From contig OY771587.1 in the NCBI GenBank assembly GCA_963674825.1, positions 704,001-768,000 on the forward strand: a stretch of DNA of 64,000 nt, written 5' to 3'. Positions 5,414-34,101 of this stretch are shown piece by piece; the first letter of the stretch is position 1, and each line of letters starts with the position of its first letter. Origin of the DNA: Candidatus Cloacimonadales bacterium (GTDB lineage Bacteria > Cloacimonadota > Cloacimonadia > Cloacimonadales > JAIOQZ01). A program made the translations under genes and the position numbers. A model generated the notes under the pieces. That model saw only the letters and a list, made by a program, of their open reading frames with translations. It made no database searches and was not told where the DNA came from.

Positions 5414-5416
5414 GCA

Positions 5417-6055: not shown

Positions 6056-6073
6056 TGCGCAGAATCCCAAGCC

Positions 6074-10081: not shown

Positions 10082-11893
10082 TTATTTCAGCAGGATCATC
10101 TTTTTCACCGACGAGGTGCTGCCGGTCTCGAGTTTGTAGAAATAGACACCAGAGCTTACACGGTGACCGCTATTATCCTGTCCGTTCCAGTCAACTGAAT
10201 GCTCACCCTGCTGCATTTTCTCGGCAACCAGGGTCTTGATCTTCTGACCACGCAGGTTGTAGATATCGATGTTCACGAATGCGTCTTCCGCGAGGTCGTA
10301 CGAGATCGTGGTGGTCGGATTGAAGGGATTGGGGTAGTTCTGGTTCAGTGTGAACTTCACGGACTGAACTTCTTCTTCGTCGTTGCCCAACGTACCGCCA
10401 TCATAGTAGATATCGTCGATGCCAAACTCACACATCGCGCCCTGTTCTTCCAGGATCACAAATTCATATGAGAGCATACGCATATCGATGTACTGACCGC
10501 GAAGGTCTTCCACCGGAATGATCGCCTGACCCCATTCACCATCGCGAACAAGATTGTAGGCAGTTGTGTTAGCCGGGAAAGTTACGTAGTTCTGGTTGCC
10601 CCAGGAGTCGATGACACCGATCTTGAAAGTGACGCCAGCAGGCATCTTGATCATGAACTTGAGGTCGCCATCTCCGAAGTTGAAGAGGTTTACCGGTTGC
10701 GTTGACATGATGCCAGCGCCAAACCAGCCCACACCGGCAGACTGCCAGCTGATGCCGTATTCACCTTCGTACGGCGGGATATTGCCGTCAACCAGCGTGC
10801 CTTCCCATACATAGATGTAGGAATCAACGCCGATCTCGAGCTGATTGTATGTCTCGGTCTCTTCGGTAAAGAGCCCGAATGATTCGTATTGCGACTCAGG
10901 AGGTCCGAGGTGAACCGAGCCCTGTCCATTCCACTCCATCACCTTGATGTAATCAACGTACATCTCGGCAGGGAACGTCATCGAGACAGGAAGTCCACTA
11001 CCTGGATCACCGAGGTTATAAGCGTCGGTAAATGCTCCGCCAATCGCCAGATCGACGATCAGATAGAAGGGATCCCAGAATTCAGCAGAAGTGCTGTCGA
11101 TTGCAAAAGGTGCTTCATAGAGGTCGTATTCGATATCGTTATCGACAACAGTGAGACGAAGGCTGTCCGCGTCCCAGTAGGTGCGGTACGTGAGAAAACG
11201 ACCGGTGAGAGTCGGATCATAGCTGTAATAGGGGCGGCAAGATTCGTCTGTCGGATCCCACGAGATACTTGCTGCACCCGATGGATTTTCCGGCGTAACC
11301 GCAGCGTCGGAATAATAGATCGCGTTAGCGCCAACCATCTGATTTACGGTAGAGTTATCCTGTCCGTTACCGCCATTGTGTGTGTCGTGAAGATTACGGA
11401 AGGACTGCGTGAATCCCATTTCCATCATGTCAATCTCACCACAGCGAGGCCAGGAGTAATTGCTTGTTCCAAGCATCCACACTGCCGGCCAGCCTCCGAG
11501 GTCGATATTCGGAACCAAAACGCGTGTTTCGATCATACCATATTGAATGGACACGAACGATTTCGTATTCAAACGTCCCGATGTGTAATTGAGCGGGTTT
11601 CCCCACTGATCCACGATATTCGGGCCGGATTCGTTGCGAGCGGTGATTTTGAGGGCGTTGTTTCCCGGTTCATCAGGAATCTCAGTGATTTCGATATTGT
11701 CCGCCTGATAGTATTCCAGCTCACCGTTACCCCAGCCCCATGAGCCGTTGCCGTTTTCGATCAGCCAGTTATCCAGATTGTCAAAGTTCTCTTCCCAGAT
11801 CACTTCTCCGACCTGTGCATACACAAGGCTTGCAGTGAAGATCAGGAGAATCAGTGCCAGATGTTTCAAAAGCTTTTGTCCGTGTTCAATCAT
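10082..11893 (-). CDS. GH16 laminarinase-type endo-beta-1,3-glucanase + putative binding module + FlgD-Ig/T9SS-type tail
   Basis: GWGNGELEYY, WPAVWMLG, WPRCGEIDMME (ExDxxE); signal peptide; NYPNPFNP...KKMILLK. Confidence 0.9.
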   Translation of the reverse strand: MIEHGQKLLKHLALILLIFTASLVYAQVGEVIWEENFDNLDNWLIENGNGSWGWGNGELEYYQADNIEITEIPDEPGNNALKITARNESGPNIVDQWGNPLNYTSGRLNTKSFVSIQYGMIETRVLVPNIDLGGWPAVWMLGTSNYSWPRCGEIDMMEMGFTQSFRNLHDTHNGGNGQDNSTVNQMVGANAIYYSDAAVTPENPSGAASISWDPTDESCRPYYSYDPTLTGRFLTYRTYWDADSLRLTVVDNDIEYDLYEAPFAIDSTSAEFWDPFYLIVDLAIGGAFTDAYNLGDPGSGLPVSMTFPAEMYVDYIKVMEWNGQGSVHLGPPESQYESFGLFTEETETYNQLEIGVDSYIYVWEGTLVDGNIPPYEGEYGISWQSAGVGWFGAGIMSTQPVNLFNFGDGDLKFMIKMPAGVTFKIGVIDSWGNQNYVTFPANTTAYNLVRDGEWGQAIIPVEDLRGQYIDMRMLSYEFVILEEQGAMCEFGIDDIYYDGGTLGNDEEEVQSVKFTLNQNYPNPFNPTTTISYDLAEDAFVNIDIYNLRGQKIKTLVAEKMQQGEHSVDWNGQDNSGHRVSSGVYFYKLETGSTSSVKKMILLK

Positions 11894-11926
11894 TTTATAC
11901 CTCGGTGTTATTGGTTCGTATTCGAT

Positions 11927-12547
11927 CTATTGTATCTTTGACATCGTACCCGATTCAAAATCGTACACATAGCCCCATTCGCTCATCTCGACGAGCGCTT
12001 CTGCAGGATCGCCATACAGCGACAGCAGGTTGAGGTCGGTCGGGTCGTACAGCGCTTCACCCACCATGTCACGCAGCGTTACCGCGTAATAAGCGTCTTC
12101 GCTGACCCACCATGCGTTCCACCAGGTAACGGAATCATAGAAATGATCCAGCACGGCGCGATAGGCCTTAATCGCCTGATCGTGTGCATTCGCGCTTCCG
12201 CCTTCGGTGTAAAGCTCATGCAAAGCCTGTGCGACGTAGTACTGATATTCACCCATGGGTTGGCGTGCAAGCATCGTCGCCCAGAGGTAGAACTTCGCTT
12301 TGGCCGACGGGCAATCGTTATACATATCCCACACATTCTCGCTGTTCAGGTTCGCGTTGGCATATGGGTTGTCGGGGTCGTCGAGGATATCGGTATTCGG
12401 GTAGAGTCCCTCGTCCGCCGAGTAGAGGTTCAGCACGACATCGGTGGGAAGGTCGATCATCGTCGATTCGGTTCCGTTCTTCACGTCGCAGCCTGCAATC
12501 AAGAGAATTGCTGCGGCAATGGCGATCCAGATAATGTTTTTCTTCAT
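11927..12547 (-). CDS. Lipoprotein of unknown function, helical/TPR-like C-terminal half
   Basis: Lipobox LLIAG-C; AGGAGG RBS; 12 nt after the upstream gene. Confidence 0.8.
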   Translation of the reverse strand: MKKNIIWIAIAAAILLIAGCDVKNGTESTMIDLPTDVVLNLYSADEGLYPNTDILDDPDNPYANANLNSENVWDMYNDCPSAKAKFYLWATMLARQPMGEYQYYVAQALHELYTEGGSANAHDQAIKAYRAVLDHFYDSVTWWNAWWVSEDAYYAVTLRDMVGEALYDPTDLNLLSLYGDPAEALVEMSEWGYVYDFESGTMSKIQ

Positions 12548-12559
12548 GATGTCCCCTCC

Positions 12560-15673: not shown

Positions 15674-15723
15674 AGTCTCGCTCCCTTTTGGAATCAGTGA
15701 AGTGATAATGGGGAAACCCACAC

Positions 15724-15762
15724 TTCTATATAGCAATCAATATTCACGATATTTACTGTCAA
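15724..15762 (-). promoter_or_regulatory. TTGACA -35 box (15757-15762) and operator copy TTCTATATAGCA (15724-15735)
   Basis: One mismatch to the palindrome TGCTATATAGCA, 21 nt downstream of the -35 box. Confidence 0.7.
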
Positions 15763-16025
15763 GGTTATTTTAACACTTTCCATTGATTTCTACTTGGCCG
15801 ATCTTCACAATTCCCCTCAGAATGCAGAATCTGGCGTGGTTATTATTTTCAATTAAATTGGATTTCCGGCCCGGAATCGGCATCCGGTACAGCCTGACAA
15901 TGTTTTCCGTTCATTGGTATTAAGCTGTTTTCGGACGCCCGTTATTTCAAAATGGAATTGCTCTCACAATGCTATATTTTTGAGATGACCGCAAGGAAAT
16001 GATCGCCGTACCGAGTGAAATCTAT

Positions 16026-16037
16026 TCCTATATAGCA
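16026..16037. promoter_or_regulatory. Auxiliary operator copy TCCTATATAGCA
   Basis: One mismatch to the palindrome; a half-site TGCTATAT also lies at 15970-15977. Confidence 0.6.
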
Positions 16038-16042
16038 GTACA

Positions 16043-17107
16043 TTAACCTTTGGTTTTCGCGCAAGAATTACGCACTACCAGCGGTACCGGAAGAATCGCG
16101 TGCTGGTAGTCAAGATCCGCGCCCCCAATCATATCCAGAAGCATGTTAACAGACTTCTGTGCAATACGATCCACCGGTGCCGCGATGGTCGTCAGCGCCG
16201 GGAAGACCTTGGATGCCACGATGATATCGTCGAAGCCGACAACGCTCATCTCTTCCGGGATCTGAATACCTTTCTCACGGATTGCCTTCATCGCGCCGAT
16301 CGCCATGGAGTCGTTCGCGCACATAATCGCGGTTGGAGGTTTCTTCAGCGATAGCAGGTATTTTGCGCCACGCTCTCCCGATTCATATGAGAAATCGCCT
16401 TGGTAGATCAATTCGTCATCCTTCTCCGCACCAAAATGCGCCATGGAACTCGTGTAGCCCGCAAGGCGCTCACTACATATATCCGAATCCATCAGACCCG
16501 TTATATAGCCAATACGACGATGTCCGAGCGACCACAGGTAATCAACTGCCTCGCTGCTGCCGTTGAAATTATCGAGCGTGACGGACGGAATCGATTTATC
16601 ATTCGAGAGGTTGTCCAGCAGCACGATAGGCAGCATCTTCTTGAGCTCCTGGATCTTGTTTTCGATGCGCGGGAAACAACAGATTATCACACCGTCGATC
16701 TTCTTGTGGTTATTCAGCGGATTGAGGTTATCGAGCTCGGAAAACAGCACCAGATTATAGCCCTTCTGCTTGACTTCCTTCTCCAACGCGTTGAAGATCA
16801 GTGAATAATAAGGACTGGAGATGCCTTCTTTAATACCGACATCCAGAAAGAAGCCAATGTTTTGCGTCATCTTCGGCGTCATCTTGCTATGACTGACAAA
16901 GGTTCCCTTGGTAGTGAATTTATGAAGAATCCCCTCTTCAACAAGTTCCGTAATGGCCCTGCGAATCGTCATATAAGAAACATCGTGCATTTTGGCCAAG
17001 GCACGCTCGCCAGGCAACTTCCCTGCTATCTCACCACTCCTGATCCCTTCTTTGATCTTCTCTTTTACAACAAGATATTTCAACGTTTTACCACTCATCT
17101 GTTCCAT
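16043..17107 (-). CDS. AraR-type regulator: GntR winged HTH + LacI-type sugar-binding domain
   Basis: KLPGERALAKMHDVSYMTIRRAITELVEEG...KGTFV; LGHRRIG, NDSMAIG, SVVGFDD, PALTT. Alternative start at 17098. Confidence 0.92.
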   Translation of the reverse strand: MEQMSGKTLKYLVVKEKIKEGIRSGEIAGKLPGERALAKMHDVSYMTIRRAITELVEEGILHKFTTKGTFVSHSKMTPKMTQNIGFFLDVGIKEGISSPYYSLIFNALEKEVKQKGYNLVLFSELDNLNPLNNHKKIDGVIICCFPRIENKIQELKKMLPIVLLDNLSNDKSIPSVTLDNFNGSSEAVDYLWSLGHRRIGYITGLMDSDICSERLAGYTSSMAHFGAEKDDELIYQGDFSYESGERGAKYLLSLKKPPTAIMCANDSMAIGAMKAIREKGIQIPEEMSVVGFDDIIVASKVFPALTTIAAPVDRIAQKSVNMLLDMIGGADLDYQHAILPVPLVVRNSCAKTKG

Positions 17108-17134
17108 CCATTAACACTGCCGTTAGCCTGCGAA

Positions 17135-17184
17135 ATAGCAATAGCGATAGCAGCACTATAGCAGTGCTGCCTAAACTGCTATAT
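17135..17184. promoter_or_regulatory. Cluster of ATAGC(A)/TGCTAT half-sites and an 8-bp inverted repeat upstream of the regulator
   Basis: atagca 17135, atagc 17141, atagca 17147, atagca 17158, tgctatat 17177; gcagcact-N5-agtgctgc at 17150-17170. Confidence 0.55.
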
Positions 17185-17560: not shown

Positions 17561-17601
17561 TTGACGCATCAGAAAATGAAAATGTTATTTGCTATATAGC
17601 A
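17561..17601 (+). promoter_or_regulatory. TTGACG -35 box (17561-17566) and perfect operator palindrome TGCTATATAGCA (17590-17601)
   Basis: 12-bp perfect palindrome 23 nt after the -35 box, upstream of the rightward operon. Confidence 0.75.
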
Positions 17602-17661
17602 TCATGAATGGATGTTTATATTCATCCCCTGCGATGCAAAAAGATGTGCGAGGTCCTTATT

Positions 17662-20661
17662 GTGAAACGAAATATCCTGATTTTTTCCCTGATAGCTACA
17701 CTTTTCGTGATCCTGCTTGCAGGCTGTGACCCGATGACTGATCCGGATCACGTGGAAGACACAGTTCCCTCTTCAGACTATGAACTCGTATGGGCTGATG
17801 AATTCGATCAGACATCGACGATGCCCAATCCCGCCTACTGGAATTACGATACCGGCTACGGCACGAATGGATGGGGTAACGATGAATGGCAGTATTATAC
17901 CAACTCCGAAGACAACGTGAAAGTAGAAGACGGCAATCTCGTCATTACAGCAACTTGGGATTCGGAAAATTTCCTGGCACCTGGCAAAAGAGACGGTTCG
18001 ATCACTTCTGGACGTATCAACACGAAGGGAAACTTCTCCATGAAATACGGAAAAGTGGAAGCCCGTATCAAGACACCCGAAGGCGCAGGTATCTGGCCCG
18101 CGTTCTGGATGCTCGGTTCTAACTACAATGAAGTAGGCTGGCCCTATTGCGGTGAAATCGATATCATGGAAATGAGTCCGCTCTATTATAATGAAAAGAC
18201 CACGATCTGCACCGCGCATTGGTATGACGAAGACCTCGGCGCACACAACTCGTATGGCGGCACGAAAGTTTTCGACGAATCGCTCGCGAACAACTACCAC
18301 ATCTTTGAACTCGAATGGGATGCCTATCGTCTCGTGGGGCGCATCGACGGCATGACCTATATGATCAAAACCATCGATCCCGACACCATGGATGAATTCC
18401 GAAACAACTTCTTTATCTTATTAAATATCGCTGTCGGCGGCGGATTCGGTGGAGCTCCGAACGACACCACCGTCTGGCCGCAAAAAATGTACGTCGATTA
18501 CGTACGCTGCTATCAGCTCAATCCCGATAACGACGACGTGGAATCTTTCGGTATCTTCACCGACGACACAGCTACCGATGACGGAATCATCCCCGGACTC
18601 GACGCTGAGATCTACGTATGGGAAAGCACACTTTCCACCGGCTCCATCGAGCCCTACGAAGGTGACAACGTCATGGCGTTCATCACAACCGGGGCCGGTT
18701 GGTTTGGCGCAGGTATTCAAGCAAACGAACCGATCGACATCTCGAACTTCGCGGGTGGTGATCTCAAGTTTATGATCAAGATACCGGAGAATATCCATTT
18801 CTGGATCGGTATGAACGACAACAACGGCAGCGAAAGCTATGTCGAATTCCCCGCCGGTGAAACCGCATATGGACTCACTCGTGACGGTGAATGGGGACAG
18901 GTGACCATTCCTATTCAGGATATCGCAGGTAACCTGGACCTCAGCTCCATCAGCTACGCGTTCATGATCAAGGAAGAAGAAGGCGCGTCATGCCAGTTCG
19001 CCATCGACGATATCTATCTCGACGGCGGTGGCACATCCATCAGCAGCGTCAGCTTCAGCGCAAACAGCTATACGAATGAAGATAATGGCGCGACCATTAC
19101 CGTTATCGACGAAGAAGCAACCAGCACGGATGTGATCGCAACCGTCAGCAACGGCAGTGAATCGATCGAACTCAACGTAACAATCGACGAAAACGGAACT
19201 GGCTCTGCAACAGCCCTCTTCGGTGAGACCAATCAGGAGACCGGAACCATCGCAGTAAGCGTTGGAACCACGCTTTCCGTCAGCTACACTGACACCTATG
19301 GTGTAGAACGCACAGATTCCGCAATCATCACTGCATCGACCCCCGATGTAAACACGTTCGGCGTTTTCACCGAAACGACACCGGTAACATCGAGCCTCAC
19401 CATCGGCGAGGACTCTGAAATATATGTATGGGAAGGTACACTAACCTCCGCCAACATCGATCCGTGGGAAGGCGACAACGTCATCGCATGGCAAACAACC
19501 GGCGCTGGTTGGTTTGGCGCAGGCATTACGTCCCTCAGTTCGCTTGATCTGTCCGATTTTTCTACCGGCTCACTCAAATTCATGATGAAGATGCCGGCTG
19601 ACATCACCTTTAAAATAGGTGTCCAGGATCAATCGGGCCACGAGGACTACGTCACTTTCACAGCAAATCAGAATCTTTACGGCCTGACCCGCGACGGCGA
19701 ATGGGGACAGGCATCCATTCCGATCAGTGAACTGATCAACAATGTTGATCTCTCGGACATGAGCTACGTCTTCACCATCCTGGAAGAAAACGGCGCGACG
19801 TGCGAATTCGCGATCGACGACATATACTGGCAGGAAGGCGCGGCATCGTACCAGAGCAGCGTAAGCCTGGACGCCAGCAGCTACACCGAAGACGCGACCA
19901 GCGCGCAGATTCACGTGCTGGATGAAGCCATTCCCGGCTCGACCGTCTCCGTGACCGTCCAGAACGGTTCCGAATCCATCAGTGTCGCTGTCTCGCTCGA
20001 TAGCGAAGGCGAAGGCGACGCCACCCTGAACTTCGGGACAACCGACGACGCGACCGACACCATCGCCATCTCGGCAGGCATGACCCTTACCGTCACCTAT
20101 ACCGACCACAACGGCAACAACCTGACCGACAGCGCGACCATCCAATCGTCCGGTCCGTCCGTGGATACATTTGGCATCTACACCGAGTTGACGCCCGTAA
20201 CCGACGGCATTGCTATCGGCTCCGACGCATCGATCTACGTGTGGGAAAACACCCTCACGGGTGGAACCATCGAACCTTGGGAAGGCGAATACGCCATAAG
20301 CTGGCAATCGACCGGCGCAGGCTGGTTCGGCGGCGGCATCAAAGTCAGCCAGGCGCTGGACCTCTCCGCATACGACGGTGGTACCGTCAAGATGATGATC
20401 AAGATGCCTGCGAATGTCACCTTCAAGATCGGAATGACCGACACAGCCGGACACGAAAAGTACGTCTCCTTCCCCGCGAATCAGACCGCATACGGCCTGA
20501 CCCGTGATGGCGAATGGGGCCAGGCTTCGATTCCGGTCAGCGAATTCACCTCTACCATCGACATCTCCGCACTCGATTACGTCTTCACCATCCTGGAAGA
20601 AAACGGAACCCAATGTGACTTCTCGATCGATGACATCTACTGGGTAGAAGCTATAAACTAA
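17662..20661 (+). CDS. GH16 laminarinase-type lipoprotein with 3 putative binding modules and 2 Ig-like spacers
   Basis: GTG start after GAGG; lipobox LLAG-C; GWGNDEWQYY, WPAFWMLG, GEIDIME; three IYVWE...GAGWFG...GLTRDGEWGQ...IDDIY repeats. Confidence 0.9.
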   Translation: MKRNILIFSLIATLFVILLAGCDPMTDPDHVEDTVPSSDYELVWADEFDQTSTMPNPAYWNYDTGYGTNGWGNDEWQYYTNSEDNVKVEDGNLVITATWDSENFLAPGKRDGSITSGRINTKGNFSMKYGKVEARIKTPEGAGIWPAFWMLGSNYNEVGWPYCGEIDIMEMSPLYYNEKTTICTAHWYDEDLGAHNSYGGTKVFDESLANNYHIFELEWDAYRLVGRIDGMTYMIKTIDPDTMDEFRNNFFILLNIAVGGGFGGAPNDTTVWPQKMYVDYVRCYQLNPDNDDVESFGIFTDDTATDDGIIPGLDAEIYVWESTLSTGSIEPYEGDNVMAFITTGAGWFGAGIQANEPIDISNFAGGDLKFMIKIPENIHFWIGMNDNNGSESYVEFPAGETAYGLTRDGEWGQVTIPIQDIAGNLDLSSISYAFMIKEEEGASCQFAIDDIYLDGGGTSISSVSFSANSYTNEDNGATITVIDEEATSTDVIATVSNGSESIELNVTIDENGTGSATALFGETNQETGTIAVSVGTTLSVSYTDTYGVERTDSAIITASTPDVNTFGVFTETTPVTSSLTIGEDSEIYVWEGTLTSANIDPWEGDNVIAWQTTGAGWFGAGITSLSSLDLSDFSTGSLKFMMKMPADITFKIGVQDQSGHEDYVTFTANQNLYGLTRDGEWGQASIPISELINNVDLSDMSYVFTILEENGATCEFAIDDIYWQEGAASYQSSVSLDASSYTEDATSAQIHVLDEAIPGSTVSVTVQNGSESISVAVSLDSEGEGDATLNFGTTDDATDTIAISAGMTLTVTYTDHNGNNLTDSATIQSSGPSVDTFGIYTELTPVTDGIAIGSDASIYVWENTLTGGTIEPWEGEYAISWQSTGAGWFGGGIKVSQALDLSAYDGGTVKMMIKMPANVTFKIGMTDTAGHEKYVSFPANQTAYGLTRDGEWGQASIPVSEFTSTIDISALDYVFTILEENGTQCDFSIDDIYWVEAIN

Positions 20662-20685
20662 AATTCGTAAAATAGAGGACTGCAC

Positions 20686-22605: not shown

Positions 22606-22614
22606 GAACGCTGT

Positions 22615-24252: not shown

Positions 24253-25313
24253 TACGATTCTGCCTGATCCTGATTGCGGTTTTTTCCCTCCTCGCAGCCT
24301 GCGCCAAACAGAAAGAAATGCCACAGAACACAATGGTCAGGCAGCTCCTCGAAGAGGGAATCACCCCTCCCCCATCCGAACCTTTCGGTATTCGCGAGTT
24401 TTTACAACCATTGGATCTCAGAGCTGTTTCTTATGGACCGTATCGCAAAGGACAAGCACCTGGTGGTGCTTCGCCTACCGAAGTAGAGCTGGAAGAAGAC
24501 CTGACTCTCATCGCGAATTACTGGCATCTAATCCGAGTCTACAACGCGGACGATCTTTCGGAGAACATGCTTTCCATCATTGATGAAAACACGCTCCCTA
24601 TCCGCGTCATGCTGGGAATCTGGCTGGAAAAAGAGGCAATAGGTACCGACGCAAAACTGCACAATATCGACAACACCCTTCGAGCTATCGAGCTCGCAAA
24701 TCGCTACAAAGACATTGTAGTGGCTGTAAGTGTGGGCAATGAAACGCAGGTCGAGTGGTCAGCACACCGCATGAATCCCGAAAACCTGATTCGATACATC
24801 CGCACCGTGCGCAACAATATCCAGCAGCCGGTTACCAGTGCAGACGATTACAATTTTTGGAATAAAAAAATCAGCGTGGAGATTGCCGACGAGATCGATT
24901 TCATCACCATGCACATGCATCCGCTTTGGAACGGAAGGACACTCGCAACCACCGCCGAATGGCTATCACGAACACTCGATGCCGTCCAAAGCATGCATCA
25001 GCGTCCTGTGATAGTGGGCGAAACAGGATGGGCAACCGACTACAATGCCAACCGCAAAGGTACTGGTGAGCAGGGAACGCTGGTCAAAGGAGAAGTGAGT
25101 GTGGAAGGGCAACAGGACTTCCTGATGCTACTCGATCGCTGGATTGAAGAGAACCAGACCACAACGTTTTTATTCGAAGCGTTCGACGAGCCCTGGAAAG
25201 GTTCTGGCGAACACGATATAGAGAATAACTGGGGCGTTTTTTACGAGGATCGCACACCCAAGTCATCCTTTAAAGCGTTCCAGGAGCATATAGATAATGG
25301 AACACTCAAATAA
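24249..25313 (+). CDS. GH17 beta-1,3-glucanase/glucosidase lipoprotein
   Basis: Lipobox LLAA-C; VSYGPYR, VSVGNE, VGETGW, FEAFDEPWK, ENNWG; GTGA overlap with the GH30 stop. Confidence 0.9.
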   Translation: MIRFCLILIAVFSLLAACAKQKEMPQNTMVRQLLEEGITPPPSEPFGIREFLQPLDLRAVSYGPYRKGQAPGGASPTEVELEEDLTLIANYWHLIRVYNADDLSENMLSIIDENTLPIRVMLGIWLEKEAIGTDAKLHNIDNTLRAIELANRYKDIVVAVSVGNETQVEWSAHRMNPENLIRYIRTVRNNIQQPVTSADDYNFWNKKISVEIADEIDFITMHMHPLWNGRTLATTAEWLSRTLDAVQSMHQRPVIVGETGWATDYNANRKGTGEQGTLVKGEVSVEGQQDFLMLLDRWIEENQTTTFLFEAFDEPWKGSGEHDIENNWGVFYEDRTPKSSFKAFQEHIDNGTLK

Positions 25314-25329
25314 AAAAATGGAGGCGAAA

Positions 25330-28300
25330 ATGAAAAGCACCCACATGATTGTTTTCCTGATGTTCATTCTGACTGCTTTCTCCGGGCTGTTTGCAGCGTC
25401 TACAACCATCGACTTCGAGTCTAGCGACAATGGAACCGGATGGACGTGGACCGTTGCAGAAAACGCAACAAACCCGGCATTGACTTTCCCGGCAAACCCA
25501 GTCAGTGGCGGTATCAACACGTCGGCAACCGTTGCCGAATATACCGCTCTCGATGCTGGTAATCCCTGGGCTCTTTGTTTCACTGACGACATCGACGGTT
25601 TCACGTTTACAGAAAGCAACAGCACCGTCACAATCCAGGTCTATAAGACCGTAGCAACCAACATCGGTATCAAGTTTGAAGGAATTAGCCCCGCAGTTGA
25701 ACTGCAGGTAGCAAACACATCTGTCAACCAGTGGGAAACCGTTACCTTCGATTTCTCCAGTGCGATCGGCAACACCTACACCAGACTGGTCATCATCCCC
25801 GATTTCCAGGACCGCAGCGAAGATCACACAATCTACTTCGATAACATCGTGATCCCCGCAAGCAACACTATTATCCCAGACCCAGAAGCACCTGAAGTGG
25901 CCGCACCGGTTCCCACCGAAGCACCCGAAGATGTAATTTCTATCTACAGCGACAGCTACACTAACCTTGAAGGCACCAACTTCGCAGCTCCGTGGGGACA
26001 GTCCACTGTCGTCACGTTCGACGAAGTTGAAGGCAACGGGTACATGTACTACTCGATGTTCAACTACCAGGGTACGCAACTTCTCGGCGCGCATAATCTT
26101 TCCAGCATGACCCACGTTCATATCGACATGTGGACACCGGACGCAACCGTTGTTCAGTTCACACCCATCAGCGCATCGACCGGCGAACACCTTGTCTCGC
26201 TGACTCCGATCAACCTGGAAGCATGGAATAGCTACGATATTCCGCTTTCAAGCTTCACCGGCGTCGCGATGACCGACATTCACCAGCTCAAGTTCGACGG
26301 ACAAGCCGGCGTCTCGCCGTCCAACGTCTATCTTGACAACATCTACTTCTACGCCGGCGACATCTCCGGCACCGACGCAACGCTCAGCGACCTTAAGGTC
26401 GATGGCACAACCGTCGATGGTTTCGCTTCCAATGTTTATTCCTACGATGTCGAGCTTCCGGAAGGAACCACAACCGTCCCGACCGTTACCGCAACGACTA
26501 ACGACGTGAACGCAAGCCATGTGGTGAACGCTGCGTCCGCACTTCCGGGAACGACCACTGTCGTCGTGACTGCTGAAGACGGAACGACAAGCCTCACATA
26601 CAGCGTCAACTTCACGGTTGAGAATAACAATCCGACCGAACCGTCCGAAGCAGCTCCGACACCTACCCACCTTCACGAGAATGTCACATCCGTATTCAGC
26701 AACGTGTACGGCGATATGGCCGGGGCAAACTTCAACCCCGCATGGGGACAAACAACAACCGTTGGCTTCGTACTGGTTGGCGGCGATGTTACCCTGCAAT
26801 ATGCTAACTTCAACTACCAGGGAACCGAATTCCCGAGTATCAATCTTTCCGCGATGGAATATATCCACTTTGATCTGTGGACTCCGGACGCAACCGTCAT
26901 CGAGTTCTCGCCGATCAGCGAAACAACCGGCGAACACCTTGTAGCGATCGATCCACTCGTTCAGGGAACCTGGAACAGTATTGATATGCCGCTTACCGAT
27001 TTCACGGGCGTTAGCATGGCCGATATCAATCAGCTCAAGTTCAATGGCCAGAACGGTGTATTCCCGTCCAGTGTATGGATCGATAATATCTTCTTCTGGA
27101 AAAGCCCTGCAGGCGATGACGAAGACGCGACTCTCAGCAACCTGCTGGTGAACGGCACGACCGTCAGCGGCTTCTCACCCGCAACTTATGATTACGATGT
27201 CGAGCTTCCGTTCGGCACTACCGTAGTTCCCACCGTAACCGCTGTCACAACCGATCTGGATGCAAGCTACGTCGTTAACGACGCTGCTGCTCTTCCGGGA
27301 TCCACAACCGTTGTCACCACCTCTGAAAACGGAGAGAACAGCCTCACGTACACGCTCAACTTTACCGTTGCCACAGAAACCAGCGATCCGACCCAAGGTG
27401 CACCGGCTCCGACCCATGCAAACGCGGATGTCGTCTCTGTGTTCAGTAACACTTACGGTGACATGGCCGGCGTAAACTTCAACCCGCCTTGGGGACAGTC
27501 CACCACCGTGACCCTCGAATCGATCGGCGGCAACACAACCCTGAAATATGCAAACTTCAACTACCAGGGAACGCAGTTCGCAGGAACTGTTGACCTTTCT
27601 CTGATGGAATACGTTCATATCGACATTTGGACACATGACGCAACGATCGTTAAATTCTCTCCCATCAGCGTTAGCACGGGCGAAGTCCTGACCATTCTCT
27701 CACCGCTTGAGCAGGATACATGGAACAGCCTCGATATCCCGCTTGAAGACTTCACTGGCATGACCATGTCCGACATCCATCAGCTCAAGTTCGATGGACA
27801 GGCCGGCGTCTCGCCCTCGACCATCTGGCTCGACAACATCTACTTCTGGAAGAACCCGACCCAAGCTGGCAGCGATGCAACCCTCAGCGACCTGAAGGTT
27901 GACGATGTAACCATCCCGGGATTCTTATCAGGAACTCTTAACTACACCTACGAGCTTCCGATGGATGCGACAGAGGTTCCGACCGTAACCGCAACCACAA
28001 CCGACGTAAATGCTTCCTATGTCATCAATGACGCTACCGAGCTCCCGGGCTCCACGACTGTCGTTGTAACCGCGCAGGACAACACCACGGTCCTTACCTA
28101 TACCATCAACTTCACGATCGCAGATCCGGTACCGAATGAGGCAGCTCCGATCCCAACCGTCGATCCTGCTAACGTAATCTCGATCTTCAGCAACACCTAC
28201 GGCGATATCGCAGGTGCAAACTTCAACCCCAACTGGGGTCAATCTACTACCGTTACCTTCGAAAACATCGATGGCAACACAACCCTTAAATATGCAAACT

Positions 28301-28842
28301 TCAACTACCAGGGAACCGAGTTTATGCAAACCGATTTCTCGGCTCTGGATTACGTTCATATCGATATCTGGACACCGGACGCAACTGTCATTCTGTTCTC
28401 GCCCATCAGCGCAACCACAGGCGAACATCTCGTCTCTGTTCTTCCGCTCGAATCAATGACCTGGAACAGCGTTGACATTCCACTCACTGATTTCACAGGC
28501 GTTTCGATGAGCGATCTCTTCCAGCTCAAATTCGACGGGCAGACTGGTGTATCACCGTCTACCGTCTATATTGACAACATCTACTTCTACAGCGAACCAA
28601 CCGGACTCGAAGCTCCGCAGAATGTGGTCGTCACCATTACCGGAGATCAGGTCACCGTTTCCTGGGATGCCGTCGATGGCGCGAACAGCTACAAGATCTA
28701 CGCATGCGACACTCCTTACGGAACATTCGAAGAAGTGACCATGGGTGTCTTCTATCCCACAAGCTGGACTGGAATCGTTGAAGAAGGCCACAAATTCTAC
28801 TACGTCAAAGCAAGTGACGAATCTGGAATTTTACGTAAATAA
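25330..28842 (+). CDS. Secreted non-catalytic repeat protein: N-domain + 4 CBM-like repeats alternating with 3 cadherin-like beta-sandwiches + FN3-like tail
   Basis: GGAGG then ATG at 25330; repeats AP.PT...V.S.FS..Y...WGQ.T...FNYQG...H.D.WT...DNI; spacers DATLS.L.V...VPTVTA. Confidence 0.85.
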   Translation: MKSTHMIVFLMFILTAFSGLFAASTTIDFESSDNGTGWTWTVAENATNPALTFPANPVSGGINTSATVAEYTALDAGNPWALCFTDDIDGFTFTESNSTVTIQVYKTVATNIGIKFEGISPAVELQVANTSVNQWETVTFDFSSAIGNTYTRLVIIPDFQDRSEDHTIYFDNIVIPASNTIIPDPEAPEVAAPVPTEAPEDVISIYSDSYTNLEGTNFAAPWGQSTVVTFDEVEGNGYMYYSMFNYQGTQLLGAHNLSSMTHVHIDMWTPDATVVQFTPISASTGEHLVSLTPINLEAWNSYDIPLSSFTGVAMTDIHQLKFDGQAGVSPSNVYLDNIYFYAGDISGTDATLSDLKVDGTTVDGFASNVYSYDVELPEGTTTVPTVTATTNDVNASHVVNAASALPGTTTVVVTAEDGTTSLTYSVNFTVENNNPTEPSEAAPTPTHLHENVTSVFSNVYGDMAGANFNPAWGQTTTVGFVLVGGDVTLQYANFNYQGTEFPSINLSAMEYIHFDLWTPDATVIEFSPISETTGEHLVAIDPLVQGTWNSIDMPLTDFTGVSMADINQLKFNGQNGVFPSSVWIDNIFFWKSPAGDDEDATLSNLLVNGTTVSGFSPATYDYDVELPFGTTVVPTVTAVTTDLDASYVVNDAAALPGSTTVVTTSENGENSLTYTLNFTVATETSDPTQGAPAPTHANADVVSVFSNTYGDMAGVNFNPPWGQSTTVTLESIGGNTTLKYANFNYQGTQFAGTVDLSLMEYVHIDIWTHDATIVKFSPISVSTGEVLTILSPLEQDTWNSLDIPLEDFTGMTMSDIHQLKFDGQAGVSPSTIWLDNIYFWKNPTQAGSDATLSDLKVDDVTIPGFLSGTLNYTYELPMDATEVPTVTATTTDVNASYVINDATELPGSTTVVVTAQDNTTVLTYTINFTIADPVPNEAAPIPTVDPANVISIFSNTYGDIAGANFNPNWGQSTTVTFENIDGNTTLKYANFNYQGTEFMQTDFSALDYVHIDIWTPDATVILFSPISATTGEHLVSVLPLESMTWNSVDIPLTDFTGVSMSDLFQLKFDGQTGVSPSTVYIDNIYFYSEPTGLEAPQNVVVTITGDQVTVSWDAVDGANSYKIYACDTPYGTFEEVTMGVFYPTSWTGIVEEGHKFYYVKASDESGILRK

Positions 28843-28860
28843 TCTTGCCGGAGGAAAATA

Positions 28861-30741
28861 ATGAAGAAGACCATCATCATGACGATGCTTATCCTCCTGA
28901 TAAGCGCTGCCATGTACGCACAATACGAAACTGTTGATTTCGAAGCTGGCGGAACGGGAGCCGATTGGGGCTGGACCGTCGGCGAAAACGGCGATAATCC
29001 GCCGTTGGATTTCGTCAACAATCCGTCCGCAAGCGGAATTAACACATCCGCAATCGTCGCGCAGTTTACCGCTCGCGCAGCTGGTATGTCTTGGGCACTC
29101 TGCTACACAGACGACATCTCTGATTTCGAATTCGACGCAACCAACACCACCATTACAATCATGGTTTATAAGTCCGTGATTAGCCCGGTGGGTGTGAAAT
29201 TCGAAGGTACAAGCGCTGCTGTCGAAGTACAGGCCAGCAACACCGTCACCAACCAGTGGGAAAGCCTTACGTTCAATTTCTCGAGCGCTATCGGCAACAC
29301 CTACAACCGTCTCGTAATCATCCCGGATTTCGCGGAACGAACCGAAGATCACGTTGTTTATTTCGACAACCTCCAGATCCCCGAAGGCAACGCAAACCCG
29401 ATCCCGGAGCCACAAGTCGCTGCTCCGACTCCTACATACGACGAGAGCACAGTGATTTCTCTGTTCTCTGATGCGTACAACAACGTAACCGTCGATACAT
29501 GGTCGGCAGACTGGGATAACGCTGTCGTAAGCGACGTGCAGATCCAGGGCAACAACACTAAGCTTTATACAAGCATGGTTTTCGCCGGTATCGAATTCAT
29601 CAACCAGACCATCGACGCAACCTCGATGGATTTCTTCCACCTCGATGTCTGGACTCCGGACGAAATCACAGGCGACATCTCGCTTAACGTGAAACTCGTC
29701 GATTTCGGTGCTGATGGCGTGTACGGCGGCGGTGACGACGTGGAGCATGAGGTTTCCTACGGTTCCGGAACCATGACCTCCGAAGAATGGGTCAGCCTCG
29801 ATATCCCGATGGACGATTTCACCGGTCTGACCACCCGTGGTCACCTGGCACAGCTCATATTCTCCGGTGGAATCACCACCCTCTATGTCGATAACATCTA
29901 CTTCCGCTCGGGCAATTCGGCTCCGAACCAGCCCGAAGTGGCAGCTCCGACGCCGTCCTACAACCAGGACGCGGTAATCTCGCTCTTCAGCAACGCATAT
30001 AGCAATGTAACCGTAGATACATGGTCTGCCGAATGGGATCAGGCCAACGTGGGTGACGTGCAGATTCAAGGTAACGATACCAAGCTTTACACAAGCCTGG
30101 TTTATGCCGGAATCGAATTCACCTCCGCAACCCTCAACATCACTGAAATGACCCACTTCCACATGGATATCTGGACTCCCGATACCATCGATGACGAATC
30201 CACATTCGCCGTGAAGTTGGTCGATTTCGGCGCCGATGGCGCATACGATGGCGGCGATGACGTTGAAGCCGAAGTCACTTTCGACAACACGACACTGCAA
30301 TCAGAAAACTGGATCAGCCTGGACATGAACCTGGACGACTTCACAGCCCTCACCACCCGTGAGCACATTGCGCAACTCGTCCTCACCAGCGGTCCCAACA
30401 CCGTTTATATCGACAATATCTACTTCCGTGACGACACACAGGCAGCGGACGACGAAGTTGTGGATGTTACCGGCGCTCGCTACGAGCTCAACGGAAACTA
30501 CCCCAACCCGTTCAACCCGGTCACCAGTATCAAGTTCTCCATGAGCCAGCCCGGCCATGCCGTACTCAAGGTGTACGATGTCCGCGGTCGCCTTGTGAAG
30601 ACACTAGTCGACAACCGGTTGGATGCCGATAATCATGAGATCGTCTGGAACGCTGAGAACACAGCTTCCGGCGTCTATTTCTACTCGCTGAAAGTCGATA
30701 ACGGTCCGATCGAGACCAAGCGCATGGTCCTACTTAAATAA
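28861..30741 (+). CDS. Secreted non-catalytic protein: same N-domain + 2 CBM-like repeats + FlgD-Ig/T9SS-type tail
   Basis: N-domain nearly collinear with that of the 25330 gene (W.WTV.EN...NQWE...FSSAIGNTY.RLVIIPDF); 2x AAPTP...VISLFS.AY..VTVDTWSA.W...KLVDFGADG; NYPNPFNP...MVLLK. Confidence 0.85.
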   Translation: MKKTIIMTMLILLISAAMYAQYETVDFEAGGTGADWGWTVGENGDNPPLDFVNNPSASGINTSAIVAQFTARAAGMSWALCYTDDISDFEFDATNTTITIMVYKSVISPVGVKFEGTSAAVEVQASNTVTNQWESLTFNFSSAIGNTYNRLVIIPDFAERTEDHVVYFDNLQIPEGNANPIPEPQVAAPTPTYDESTVISLFSDAYNNVTVDTWSADWDNAVVSDVQIQGNNTKLYTSMVFAGIEFINQTIDATSMDFFHLDVWTPDEITGDISLNVKLVDFGADGVYGGGDDVEHEVSYGSGTMTSEEWVSLDIPMDDFTGLTTRGHLAQLIFSGGITTLYVDNIYFRSGNSAPNQPEVAAPTPSYNQDAVISLFSNAYSNVTVDTWSAEWDQANVGDVQIQGNDTKLYTSLVYAGIEFTSATLNITEMTHFHMDIWTPDTIDDESTFAVKLVDFGADGAYDGGDDVEAEVTFDNTTLQSENWISLDMNLDDFTALTTREHIAQLVLTSGPNTVYIDNIYFRDDTQAADDEVVDVTGARYELNGNYPNPFNPVTSIKFSMSQPGHAVLKVYDVRGRLVKTLVDNRLDADNHEIVWNAENTASGVYFYSLKVDNGPIETKRMVLLK

Positions 30742-30749
30742 GCACTGTC

Positions 30750-30788
30750 GAATCAGCCGGTGCGCCGGTCGTGCCGGCTGATTCTTTT
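30750..30788 (+). terminator. Intra-operon stem-loop with short U tail
   Basis: gaatcagccgg(30750-30760)...ccggctgattc(30774-30784)-tttt. Confidence 0.6.
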
Positions 30789-30810
30789 CAATAACGCAAA
30801 GGAGATCGTG

Positions 30811-33800
30811 TTGAAGTCCATCAACAACGTACACTATCAACTGAAGGAATCGGGTGAATTCGTTATCGGCGATTACAACTCATCCAAGCTCTTCTCCAGC
30901 TTCTTTCCCGGAGTCGCGGGTAAAGAAGGCATCCCGATGTGGACATTCTACGTCAATCGCGGACAATGCATCTGCAGCATGGGCATCGAAGGGAAACATA
31001 ACCCCATTATGGAATTCCTGCCGGCGAACCAGGCATACAATCTGGTTACATCGCAGGGCTTCCGCACCTTCGTGAAGCTCATCCGCGACAGCGAGACCAC
31101 TTACTACGAGCCCTTCCAGAAGAGCCTGCAAAATCGCGATATGAAGATCGATCAACGCATGATCATCAATCCCGCACGACTGATTCTGGAAGAGATCAAC
31201 CACACCCTGAAACTCAAATTTACCGTCGAATACTTCAACGTTCCGCAAGATCGCTATGCCGGCCTGATTCGCAAACTGCACATCGAGAATCTTGGCGATG
31301 AAACCATTCGCTTCGAAGCACTTGATGGCCTTCCGCTCATTATTCCTTACGGCCTCGACAACGGCGCACTCAAGTTTATCCGCCGCCTGGTAGAGGCATT
31401 CGTGGAAGTGAAAAACCACGAGAACAAAGCCCCGCTCTTCAAAGGCAAAGTAGAACCGCACGACAGACCGGAAGTTGTCCATATCAAGAAAGGTAACTTC
31501 TACCTCGGATTCGTGGACGGTGGTATGGTGGATACAATCGTTGATCCCGTGCGCATCTTCGGTATTCGCGGCGACTACCAGTTCCCGGAAAGATTCCTGG
31601 AAGCATCCGTGGACGAATTGGTCCGCGACCAGATTTTAGAAAACAGACTCCCCTCCGCGATGGGCTGCCTGAGCGGATCCATCGAACCAGGAAAAATATT
31701 TGGCTACACATCCATCATCGGACAGGCCAGTTCAGCTGCAACGCTCAACCATATGGTTCCAGAAATCGCCACGCAAGATTATGTAAACACCAAATATAAC
31801 GAGAATCGTAACATCATCGCCAAGCTGACCCAGAATAACTTCATCTGTAGTCAGGAACCGGTACTGGACCACTACGCGCGCATGAATTTCCTCGATAACA
31901 CCCTCCGCGGCGGCTTCCCGTATACATTCAAGGGCAGCAAGGAATCGACCACCCTCTACCTCTATTCGCGCAAGCATGGTGACCTCGAACGCGACTACAA
32001 CGACTATCGTCTCATGCCTACTCCTTATTCGCAAGGCAACGGCAATTTCCGCGACGTCAACCAGAACCGCCGCTGCGACCTCTGGTTCAATCCCGACGTC
32101 CGCGACGGCAATATCGAGCACTTTTACAACCTCATCCAGCTTGACGGTTACAATCCGCTGGTCATCAAAGACGTACGCTTCAAAGCCCCGGAACAGAATG
32201 GTCTTGAGGAAGTACTTCGTACTTACTTCGACAAGGATCACGTTCCCGCGCTGAAGAAATACATACAGAATCCTTTCACACCCGGTGAACTCATCCTCTT
32301 CCTGCGGGAAGAAGGCTTTGAGATCAAGGGGGACAGCGAACAGCTCCTTGGCGATCTGATGAGCATATGCGAGAAAGATCACGATGCCGATTTCGGCGAA
32401 GGCTACTGGATCGACCACTGGACTTACAATATCGATCTTCTGGAAAACTATCTGTCAATCTACCCAGAGCAAAAGCAAAACCTGCTCTTCGAAAAGAAAA
32501 CGTTCACCTTCTACGACAGTCCACACCACGTGACACCACGTGACGACAAGTACGTGCTCTGGGATGGTAAGCCCATGCAGCTTAACAGCGTCGAGTTCGA
32601 CGAAGAGCACAATGACCTGATCGAAAGTCGCACCAAAGACCGTCACCAAATGCATACAGCGCACGGAACCGGCGAAGTTTACCGCACCACGCTGTTCAAC
32701 AAGATGCTGTGCCTCGTCGTCAACAAACTCGCCTCGCTTGATCCCAATGGCGTGGGTATCGAGATGGAATCAGACAAGCCGGACTGGTATGACGCACTCA
32801 ATGGTATGCCTGCTCTCATCGGCTCCAGCCTGAATGAAACCCTGGAACTCAAGCGCTTGATCCTGTTCGCGCTCCAGAGCATCGAAGAAATCAACAGCCC
32901 AGACCGCAATCTTTTGCTTTTTACCGAAATACACGCTTTCCTCGTTGCACTAGCCGAGCTTCTGGCAAAGGATCTTACTCCGTTCGCTTACTGGAATCAG
33001 GCAACAGCGCTCAAAGAGAACTATCGCGACGCGACCCGCATGGGAATCTCTGGCGAAGAGAAGCCTGTCTCGCTCAAAGCAGTGAAAACAACGCTGCAAA
33101 AGGGTCTGGAGCGCATTGAAGATGGCATCGCCCGAGCATGGAACGATGAGCAAAATGTCATCTCGACATACTTCATCAACCACGTAACCAGCTATGAACC
33201 GCTCTTCATCGAAAAGGACGTCCCCAAGAAGAACGCAAAAGGCCTCCTCTGCTTCCGCGCCACAGGCTTCAAGCAGACAGCGCTTCCGCTCTTCCTGGAG
33301 GGCCCGGTTCACTATCTGCGTTGCAGCACCGACCGCGATAAGTCCCGCGAACTGGTGCAGAACATCCGGCAAAGCGGCCTTTTCGACCAGAAGCTGGAGA
33401 TGTACAAAGTCAACGAAAAGCTGACGGATCAGCCCATGGAAATCGGGCGCGCCCGGACGTTCTCGCCCGGATGGTTCGAAAACGAATCCATCTGGCTGCA
33501 CATGGAGTACAAGTACATGCTGGAAATCCTTCGAAATGATCTCCACGACGAGTTCTTCCAGGATTTCAAGAACGTGTGTGTTCCTTTCATGAAGCCAGAA
33601 GTCTATGGCCGCAGCATCCTGGAGAACTCCTCCTTCATCGTCAGCAGCGCTAATCCCGATCCGTCCATTCACGGCAACGGATTTGTCGCGCGGCTTAGCG
33701 GAGCAACGGCGGAGTTCATCAACATTCTCATGTTCATGGTCATCGGCAAAAAGCCCTTTAGTCTGGATGAAAACGGCGAGCTCGAACTTCACCTGAACCC

Positions 33801-34101
33801 GGTCATTCCGCAGTGGCTCTTCACCGAAGAGGAGAAGACCCATCGCCTGTTCATCAACGGCGAATGGACGGATGTGAGATTCGAGAAGGACACCTTCAGC
33901 TTCATTTTCCTCGGCGAAACGCTGGTAACCTACCACAATCCGCAGCGGAAGGATACGTTCGGCAAAGTAAGTGTTGCGCCGGTGTCGTATTCCATTGAGG
34001 ACAAACAAGGTAACGTCGTGAAGACCGACCGCATCGTCGGTGAATTGGCGGAAAAAATACGTAAGAGAGACGTCGTGCGGATACGCATCGACCTCGCATA
34101 G
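30811..34101 (+). CDS. GH161-like beta-1,3-glucan phosphorylase, cytoplasmic
   Basis: FSSFFPGVAG..GIPMWTFYVNRGQ, EFLPANQAY, GFRTF, SRKHGDLERDYN, QGNGNFRDVNQNRR, GEGYWIDHWTY, KPDWYDALNG, PGWFENESIWLHMEYKY, GFVARLSG.TAEF; no signal peptide; TTG (or GTG 30808) after GGAG. Confidence 0.8.
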   Translation: MKSINNVHYQLKESGEFVIGDYNSSKLFSSFFPGVAGKEGIPMWTFYVNRGQCICSMGIEGKHNPIMEFLPANQAYNLVTSQGFRTFVKLIRDSETTYYEPFQKSLQNRDMKIDQRMIINPARLILEEINHTLKLKFTVEYFNVPQDRYAGLIRKLHIENLGDETIRFEALDGLPLIIPYGLDNGALKFIRRLVEAFVEVKNHENKAPLFKGKVEPHDRPEVVHIKKGNFYLGFVDGGMVDTIVDPVRIFGIRGDYQFPERFLEASVDELVRDQILENRLPSAMGCLSGSIEPGKIFGYTSIIGQASSAATLNHMVPEIATQDYVNTKYNENRNIIAKLTQNNFICSQEPVLDHYARMNFLDNTLRGGFPYTFKGSKESTTLYLYSRKHGDLERDYNDYRLMPTPYSQGNGNFRDVNQNRRCDLWFNPDVRDGNIEHFYNLIQLDGYNPLVIKDVRFKAPEQNGLEEVLRTYFDKDHVPALKKYIQNPFTPGELILFLREEGFEIKGDSEQLLGDLMSICEKDHDADFGEGYWIDHWTYNIDLLENYLSIYPEQKQNLLFEKKTFTFYDSPHHVTPRDDKYVLWDGKPMQLNSVEFDEEHNDLIESRTKDRHQMHTAHGTGEVYRTTLFNKMLCLVVNKLASLDPNGVGIEMESDKPDWYDALNGMPALIGSSLNETLELKRLILFALQSIEEINSPDRNLLLFTEIHAFLVALAELLAKDLTPFAYWNQATALKENYRDATRMGISGEEKPVSLKAVKTTLQKGLERIEDGIARAWNDEQNVISTYFINHVTSYEPLFIEKDVPKKNAKGLLCFRATGFKQTALPLFLEGPVHYLRCSTDRDKSRELVQNIRQSGLFDQKLEMYKVNEKLTDQPMEIGRARTFSPGWFENESIWLHMEYKYMLEILRNDLHDEFFQDFKNVCVPFMKPEVYGRSILENSSFIVSSANPDPSIHGNGFVARLSGATAEFINILMFMVIGKKPFSLDENGELELHLNPVIPQWLFTEEEKTHRLFINGEWTDVRFEKDTFSFIFLGETLVTYHNPQRKDTFGKVSVAPVSYSIEDKQGNVVKTDRIVGELAEKIRKRDVVRIRIDLA

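Follow-up and report, generated by a model that had tools for sequence, protein, structure and literature searches.

A gene cluster with a predicted role in beta-1,3-glucan use occupies positions 10082-34101 of the 64,000-nt stretch analysed here (the window, to which coordinates refer unless a related locus, L###, or a genome of the comparison set, G###, is named), taken from the single-contig, 99.57% complete genome of a Candidatus Cloacimonadales bacterium. Our main subject is a protein of this cluster that joins a predicted glycoside hydrolase (GH) to a predicted outer-membrane beta-barrel (hereafter the fusion). An earlier reading made from the letters of the window (the sequence-only reading) had listed two GH16 proteins, GH17, GH30, a GH161-like phosphorylase, a major facilitator superfamily (MFS) permease, two binding-type proteins, a regulator, the fusion and a lipoprotein, and the open reading frame (ORF) list and family scans recovered all of them; three predicted operator sites are listed alongside:

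10082..11893, minus strand: secreted GH16 of the laminarinase type, with one carbohydrate-binding module (CBM)-like domain and a type A-like C-terminal domain of the type IX secretion system (T9SS)
11927..12547, minus strand: lipoprotein, 206 aa, no family, lipobox IAG-C20
12560..15673, minus strand: hydrolase-barrel fusion, 1037 aa, no Pfam or NCBIfam match
15724..15735: predicted operator (palindrome TTCTATATAGCA with 1 mismatch), some 50 bp ahead of the start codon of the fusion
16026..16037: second predicted operator, 1 mismatch, just downstream of the regulator
16043..17107, minus strand: regulator with a GntR helix-turn-helix (HTH) and a LacI-type sugar-binding domain (PF00392 and PF13377 over cut-off)
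17590..17601: perfect palindrome TGCTATATAGCA, ahead of the plus-strand operon
17608..20661, plus strand: GH16 lipoprotein of the laminarinase type with three CBM-like repeats (PF00722)
20686..22605, plus strand: GPH-family MFS symporter (PF13347; TIGR00792 below cut-off)
22615..24252, plus strand: GH30 (PF02055; NEP and TEGC motifs)
24249..25313, plus strand: GH17-like lipoprotein (PF00332 weak; GNE and GETGW motifs)
25297..28842, plus strand: non-catalytic multi-CBM protein, 1181 aa, with one 8qx6-like domain, four repeats and cadherin-like spacers
28861..30741, plus strand: non-catalytic CBM protein with a T9SS type A-like C-terminal domain (PDB 8qx6, E 4e-9 over 32-144; PF18962)
30760..34101, plus strand: cytoplasmic GH161 beta-1,3-glucan phosphorylase (PDB 9qqk and 9h8v, E about 1e-216)

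Within each same-strand run the genes overlap or, where gaps were measured, are separated by 9-33 bp, and each catalytic and transport gene is single-copy in the genome (tblastn). The clustering of carbohydrate-active enzymes, binding proteins, a transporter and a local regulator for one glycan is as in a Bacteroidota-type polysaccharide utilisation locus (PUL), although the tandem susC/susD pair of that type is absent, and a role of the locus in beta-1,3-glucan catabolism is supported. For the fusion, ATG 15673 is the most probable start codon rather than TTG 15736: it has the ribosome-binding site (RBS) AAAGGGAG upstream, and close homologues begin at the same place.

The fusion consists of a signal peptide, a clan GH-A triosephosphate isomerase (TIM) barrel (about residues 29-436) and a predicted outer-membrane beta-barrel (about 443-1037), and is 85-89% identical to homologues in Candidatus Cloacimonadales metagenome-assembled genomes (MAGs). 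In the full-length AlphaFold2 model (predicted local distance difference test score, pLDDT, 84.8) the TIM barrel is N-terminal and the beta-barrel C-terminal, and the latter modelled alone reached a pLDDT of 90.0 and a predicted template-modelling (TM) score of 0.85. DSSP of both models yields 24 predicted amphipathic strands. Together with the signal peptide, the alternation of long loops and short turns and the C-terminal aromatic residue (Phe, as in 105/120 homologues), these strands are the marks of an outer-membrane beta-barrel, and the models support a real barrel of this kind. No plug domain was found: PF07715 gave no match, and strand 1 directly follows the GH linker or, in enzyme-less homologues, the signal peptide. 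The 24 strands counted on the predicted models also differ from the 22 of TonB-dependent transporters, and a barrel of about 595 aa with no Pfam match is unlike the 12-stranded, ~300-aa barrel of classical (type Va) autotransporters. Conservation is concentrated in long loops that contain many aromatic and acidic residues (for example HVPRYHWGYEGD and YWGANP), and a 20-residue turn on the predicted periplasmic side (D405-A423) is conserved as well.

By sequence, the barrel matched nothing in Pfam, NCBIfam or the PDB, sugar-porin families included, and its nearest Atlas clusters are hypothetical proteins. By fold, the highest scores belonged to OpdQ and AlgE (both Z 15.1, over model residues 3-475), with full-length matches to the ushers FimD (Z 13.1) and PapC (Z 12.4), the root-mean-square deviation (rmsd) being 4.6-7.7 across these four. 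There were also a match to Wzi (Z 13.1, rmsd 7.2, 272 residues aligned) and matches to sugar-specific porins at Z 12-15 (rmsd 4.6-7), of partial coverage and tied with exporters and ushers. TM-scores against solved folds were at most 0.40, meaning that a close solved fold was not found, which does not show that the fold is new. None of the families tested takes in this outer-membrane component, which may be new as a category; the literature searched, in which most subscription papers are missing, held no description of the barrel that we could find, and one may exist.

In the enzyme domain, alignment assigns E178 as acid/base and E278 as nucleophile; all 119 close homologues have both residues, as do 30/34 distant ones. 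The (beta/alpha)8 fold and the two catalytic glutamates are those of a clan GH-A retaining glycosidase, and the nearest folds are the processive GH158(Pro) 9oro (Z 27.5, rmsd 3.6, 310 residues aligned), LaGH157 9fz9 (Z 27.5, rmsd 3.0, 312 aligned) and a GH2 at Z 27.4. The domain lacks family-level similarity to GH158 itself, the match being E 1e-6 over only 124 residues, with the membrane barrel in place of the C-terminal Ig domain. In a barrel with an even number of strands both ends face the periplasm, so the predicted topology places the enzyme there by default; the hydrolase is most likely periplasmic and would hence act during or after passage of the glucan. In many related loci the lipoprotein is followed by a second GH-A protein of ~600 aa (for example L013:15826-17634 and L047:13926-15710), 21-29% identical to the fused enzyme domain, without a Pfam match where scanned and absent from the source genome.

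As the sequence-only reading had stated, the locus contains no TonB-dependent receptor, SusD or GH3 (no Pfam match, with PF00593, PF07715 and PF07980 searched, among the 37 window proteins scanned), and no ATP-binding cassette (ABC) importer component lies within 10082-34101. Elsewhere, the genome encodes five plug-bearing TonB-dependent receptors and five TonB_C proteins. The genome-wide search for a co-regulated receptor showed that none of the five has the operator upstream, and none lies beside a glucanase-type gene cluster, as judged from ORF sequences and NCBIfam. SusD, LamB and OprB had no match anywhere in the genome, and one barrel-bearing MAG (G152, of unstated completeness) had no TonB-receptor match. 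Because SusD occurs in only 2 of 151 sampled genomes of the phylum, neither of which carries the barrel, its absence here is the default; we thus rejected the idea that the lack of SusC/SusD is in itself surprising, the unusual part being the barrel. A phylum-wide search for TonB receptors at E 1e-25 returned 50/151 genomes; with so strict a threshold a missing match does not mean a missing receptor, and this count was set aside.

The perfect palindrome TGCTATATAGCA at 17590..17601 is its sole exact copy in the genome (0.095 expected). With up to one mismatch three sites exist genome-wide, all between 15724 and 17601, against 4.4 expected by chance, so that the genome count shows no enrichment and the case for the operator comes from position and conservation. 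A matrix built from 72 sites in related loci ranked the three locus sites at the top of the genome (23.6, 22.1 and 19.5; next elsewhere, 14.9), and the motif was present in 37/37 loci with a GntR-type HTH regulator versus 1/40 loci with a LacI-type regulator. The GntR-type loci carrying it include Gemmatimonadota, Mariprofundus, Leucothrix and Delongbacteria records. The putative regulon appears confined to the locus, with the fusion as its sole outer-membrane barrel, and the regulator would bind TGCTATATAGCA under the control of a presumed inducer. A scan for sigma-70 promoters and terminators found fewer sites than in shuffled sequences and was uninformative.

Among the 159 fetched loci, the small lipoprotein gene lies directly downstream in 103/105 fused-barrel loci with room for it; not entered in the lipoprotein count were 12 truncated loci, 2 that lack a barrel, and those whose sequence ends too soon after the barrel (19 fused, 5 enzyme-less). 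It is present in 27 of the 28 barrel-bearing genomes of the phylum, the exception ending at a contig edge. Co-folding of fusion and lipoprotein scored 0.53 versus 0.00 for the best control, with at least 95% of contacts agreeing between runs and a partner pLDDT of 86-88. This lends weak support to a complex: the mark was reached by 116/157 solved complexes and 2/215 mismatches, with 18 of the solved complexes and both mismatches at 0.60 or below. The lipoprotein has no sequence relative in the PDB, and its Atlas neighbours are tetratricopeptide repeat (TPR) proteins (0.86-0.90), which is a lead only. It is likely the partner of the barrel fusion.

Relatives of the fusion made up 4893 of 8000 scored candidates, and gene neighbourhoods were compared in the best 80 of 357 and the best 80 of 256 confirmed stretches; 9 of the 53 unassigned ORFs of at least 550 aa, apparent antisense shadows, stood outside the Pfam scan of these loci. 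Among the 151 phylum genomes, the barrel was found in 28, GH161 in 30 and both in 26, on one contig and within about 30 kb of each other in 17 of these 26; the four genomes with GH161 only are all fragmented MAGs. The synteny survey that the sequence-only reading had proposed thus found the arrangement of barrel fusion, lipoprotein and GH161 conserved. In a Gemmatimonadota locus (L030:6446-9515), a sugar ABC importer (SBP_bac_1) lies between regulator and fused barrel, and an MFS gene is also present.

Some relatives, of 560-625 aa, have no enzyme, carry their own signal peptide and keep the invariant loops. In the barrel tree (FastTree, midpoint root) they form a clade of 18 rows (support 99) nested among fused gammaproteobacterial forms, with one further separate loss. 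Nine of 13 distinct enzyme-less barrels adjoin an SBP_bac_5 ABC importer and eight a GH16, and 12 adjoin at least one of SBP_bac_5 importer, GH16, glucokinase and GH1. Retention of the barrel without its enzyme beside a binding-protein ABC importer suggests that it resembles a sugar porin more than an enzyme anchor. Some enzyme-less barrels (L089-L091:3535-10021, also L097 and L100) are flanked by a large GH16 on one side and a type I secretion operon on the other, or follow type II secretion genes.

The Bacteroidota are represented by two annotated records of a plasmid collection, from Bacteroides finegoldii and Persicobacter, whose fusions share 37-38% identity and are followed by a CBM-repeat lipoprotein and then a GH16. 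No SusC/SusD was found within 30 and 39 kb, respectively, and no homologue of the small lipoprotein. The B. finegoldii locus (L080:11867-22903) reads DUF6377 protein, fusion (WP_022275059.1, annotated as a GH2 TIM barrel), CBM lipoprotein, GH16, fimbrillin-family protein and GH3. B. finegoldii is a tractable gut model. This homologue and the conserved operator make the barrel reading directly testable.

Both GH16 domains contain the ExDxxE motif (EIDMME at 153 in the minus-strand enzyme, which also has a CBM-like domain at 337-500 and Por_Secre_tail/FlgD_ig over cut-off). The plus-strand GH16, whose start is probably GTG 17662 (RBS seen), has endo-1,3-beta-glucanases/laminarinases as top PDB matches (E 2e-55) and CBM-like repeats at 311-474, 582-744 and 852-1014. 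Catalytic motifs are kept in GH17 and GH30; the former matches Formosa GH17 (PDB 6fcg, E 4e-19), and the latter, which matches the endo-1,6-beta-glucanase model NF053856 below cut-off (E 4e-61), is judged from its sequence a likely beta-1,6 debranching enzyme. The multi-CBM protein has its repeats in common with the lipoproteins encoded after the barrel in B. finegoldii and Persicobacter, and its end (28600-28842) is a distinct domain of ~75 aa that recurs in five further proteins from this genome and may be a second sorting signal. The 8qx6 entry matched by the next CBM protein (E 4e-9) is a 'PKD domain-containing protein' of C. forsetii, which may be a CBM102 laminarin-binding module; no paper was found tying the entry to that family. 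Residues ~108-272 of the MFS symporter form a soluble insertion of ~165 aa without a family match, which may be a binding domain on the permease; it is present in 10 related Cloacimonadota loci, absent from forms of ~480 aa, and did not align with the CBMs of the locus (hhalign at most 1.7%). Genome-wide, PNPFNP-type tails of T9SS-like character stand at the ends of 145 ORFs (in the window, 7028-9991, 10082-11893, 28861-30741 and 34631-35941) and two PorV-like genes are present, pointing to a T9SS-like export system in this Cloacimonadota genome. Outside the locus, three ORFs at 4466-6523 (315, 212 and 149 aa) have no Pfam match and coincide with a stretch of lower GC content (0.40 at 4001-6000).

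The phosphorylase, earlier called GH161-like, is a GH161 by its match to GH161A (PDB 9qqk, E 3e-217, 727 bits, over 33-1033), versus E 3e-14 and 55 bits for the GH149 6hq6 and 124 bits for NF058639 (GH149; cut-off 1150); its probable start is about 30808-30811 (RBS seen). That the locus is complete, as the sequence-only reading had claimed, is unproven: the genome search found no GH1, GH94, GH149 or BglX-type GH3. The only GH3 of the genome is a 367-aa, NagZ-like protein, encoded immediately upstream of a 919-aa TonB-dependent receptor (G000:C1:598926-602854); this GH3, beside the receptor at C1:601751, was rejected as a glucan partner, its best match being NagZ-like. Either GH161 or a periplasmic exo activity must then finish the pathway, and in the gene content an enzyme for the last step to glucose is missing unless laminaribiose is a substrate of this GH161. 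PapP-type GH161 does not cleave the disaccharide (PMC6484121), and THA_1941 (GH161) is reported to cleave it, the same paper noting that earlier data conflict (10.1101/2025.04.05.647330).

The comparisons show which genes are present, the operator, the class of fold, the catalytic residues, joint inheritance and survival of the barrel without its enzyme; the activities that follow are inferred. A glucan oligomer would free the GntR/LacI repressor from TGCTATATAGCA; the GH16 enzymes, secreted or lipid-anchored, and the multi-CBM proteins would bind and cut glucan outside the cell, as their families suggest. Chains or oligomers would then pass into the barrel, whose pore the long conserved loops may narrow, and the tethered GH-A domain would cleave arriving chains and so maintain a gradient directed inward without Ton energy; the lipoprotein may serve as lid or assembly partner. 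From what is known of the families, GH30 would debranch and GH17 shorten the products, the MFS symporter would take in oligomers and GH161 would convert them to glucose 1-phosphate. We put at roughly 55% the probability that the fusion works as a glucan-selective channel independent of TonB, to which a glucanase is tethered on the periplasmic side. The wider proposal falls somewhat short of even odds and is offered tentatively: an undescribed class of outer-membrane glycan importer, in which a 24-stranded TonB-independent channel threads beta-1,3-glucan to a tethered periplasmic glucanase in a cut-as-you-import ratchet, labelled 'GH2' or hypothetical in databases, and carried as a regulated cassette by members of Cloacimonadota, Pseudomonadota, Gemmatimonadota, Delongbacteria and Bacteroidota; in some marine Gammaproteobacteria it would have shrunk to a laminarin porin that stands alone and supplies an ABC importer. 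The 'different route' of the sequence-only reading is borne out in part: no TonB receptor is co-regulated and the models support a real barrel, through which glucan may pass, but the absence of SusCD is not unusual and the enzyme set resembles a known PUL variant.

Several observations weigh against the channel. The genome encodes five TonB receptors to which no substrate is assigned, and a TonB-dependent receptor was also found in 5/159 related loci (L044, L052, L059, L061 and L062), 7-12 kb away; the barrel is therefore not always a replacement, and as the fetched loci span only 10 kb on each side such co-occurrence is under-counted. The lipoprotein is gone from both Bacteroidota loci and from 13/16 enzyme-less loci (it follows 3/16). 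The barrel's fold matches are generic (best Z 15.1, rmsd 4.6-5.9) and include the exporter AlgE and the carbohydrate-binding barrel Wzi, and GH2/GH5 folds score nearly as high as GH158/GH157 for the enzyme (Z 25-27), so that the substrate is assigned from context. An open pore and the side of the enzyme are predictions, and in all counts related records are not independent by kinship. Alternatively, the barrel may be an occluded, Wzi-like scaffold that holds glucan or the CBM/GH16 proteins at the surface, with small products entering through general porins or an unlinked TonB receptor. The position of conserved residues mostly in long outer loops, the Wzi match (Z 13.1) and the receptors in 5/159 loci would suit such a scaffold; a sealed barrel, however, leaves the periplasm-side enzyme and the conserved turn D405-A423 without a role, enzyme-less barrels adjoin ABC importers, and no other sugar porin was found in the genome (LamB and OprB searched), and we regard it as unlikely.

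Less likely still is a type V-like translocator and anchor that displays its glucanase on the cell surface. The order of N-terminal enzyme, linker helix (393-408 of the mature model) and C-terminal barrel is an autotransporter layout, and the 24-stranded ushers FimD and PapC are among the full-length fold matches, yet barrels without the enzyme have been retained at least twice, with invariant loops and their own signal peptides, no autotransporter Pfam matched, and PorV-like genes and 145 T9SS-like tails are already at hand in the genome for surface enzymes. We give slightly less credence again to an energised importer, in which lipoprotein or GH domain would stand in for the plug and be coupled to TonB supplied in trans. 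The lipoprotein gene follows 103/105 fused barrels as susD follows susC, the co-folding score (0.53, best control 0.00) points weakly to a complex and five TonB_C proteins are available; set against this, no Plug or TonB-receptor Pfam matched at the locus, the strands number 24, not 22, the lipoprotein is absent in Bacteroidota and most enzyme-less loci, and the barrel-bearing MAG G152, its completeness unstated, gave no TonB-receptor match. Export of beta-1,3-glucan, in the manner of AlgE/AlgK/AlgL or BcsC/BcsZ and with GH161 in reverse, is very improbable. Barrel, TPR-like lipoprotein and periplasmic hydrolase do form an exporter layout, AlgE is tied for the top fold match (Z 15.1) and GH161 enzymes make glucan in vitro, but no synthase lies in the window, a crude motif scan found no QxxRW-type candidate in 159 loci, and the neighbours are importers, exported GH16s, CBMs, glucokinase and GH1/GH3.

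Laminarin is a major marine carbon pool, outer-membrane uptake is credited almost wholly to TonB-dependent SusC/SusD-type systems, and SusC/SusD-type genes are the marker by which PULs are found and substrate use is read from metaproteomes. If the channel reading is true, a second route, independent of energy and present in thousands of sequences, would change both read-outs; it would also explain how anaerobic phyla poor in SusD, Cloacimonadota among them, feed on polymers, and would be a new barrel architecture.

Among known systems, LamB, ChiP, CymA and OprB are sugar-specific porins; like them, the barrel is plug-less and its enzyme-less members adjoin binding-protein ABC importers, but unlike them it has about 600 aa and 24 strands, no PDB sequence match and, usually, a fused hydrolase, and the fold match is partial (model residues 3-475) at rmsd 6-8. 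The enzyme domain shares the TIM barrel and the aligned NE acid/base and TEFG nucleophile motifs of GH158 (BuGH158 6pal and processive GH158(Pro) 9oro; PMC13195107) and GH157 (LaGH157 9fz9), although at 16-21% identity and with a membrane barrel replacing the C-terminal Ig domain, from which the tunnel of the processive enzyme is built. In Bacteroides 1,3GULs, a large barrel gene (SusC) is likewise followed by a lipoprotein gene (SusD) and then by surface CBM proteins and GH16 (PMC7974029), and the fusions of B. finegoldii and Persicobacter occupy the place that SusC/SusD hold there; here, in contrast, there are no plug, no TonB-receptor or SusD match, 24 predicted strands, an N-terminal enzyme and a lipoprotein of 206 aa. 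The phosphorylase matches the GH161 enzymes PapP and THA_1941 over its full length (E about 1e-217; PMC6484121, 10.1101/2025.04.05.647330). Such enzymes have been described chiefly from Gram-positive clusters that also encode ABC importers and GH1/GH3/GH94; here the host is diderm, the transporter is an MFS protein and no such partner is present. For the laminarin clusters of Gammaproteobacteria, other TonB receptors have been described (PMC8371827). A close counterpart of the locus is the flavobacterial laminarin PUL variant B of Polaribacter Hel1_33_49, Formosa Hel1_33_131 and Muricauda (PMC6298971, PMC6246565, PMC13188888), which likewise combines GH16, GH17, GH30, MFS, a phosphorylase of beta-1,3-glucan, plus CBM/PKD proteins, and from which ours differs in having GH161 and not GH149, one GH17, a GntR/LacI repressor and no SusC/SusD in the locus, nor any SusD in the genome. 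In the Muricauda clusters a 'GH2' follows the regulator, and the available text names no SusC/TonB gene and no barrel in the 'GH2' (PMC13188888); since RefSeq labels the B. finegoldii homologue of the fusion GH2, the Muricauda 'GH2' may be the same protein. The surrounding pathway is of a known kind. What the window adds is that a search of the whole genome excludes a co-regulated receptor, that the operator recurs across phyla, that barrel and GH161 are inherited together in the phylum, and that barrels without the enzyme, next to ABC importers, are derived.

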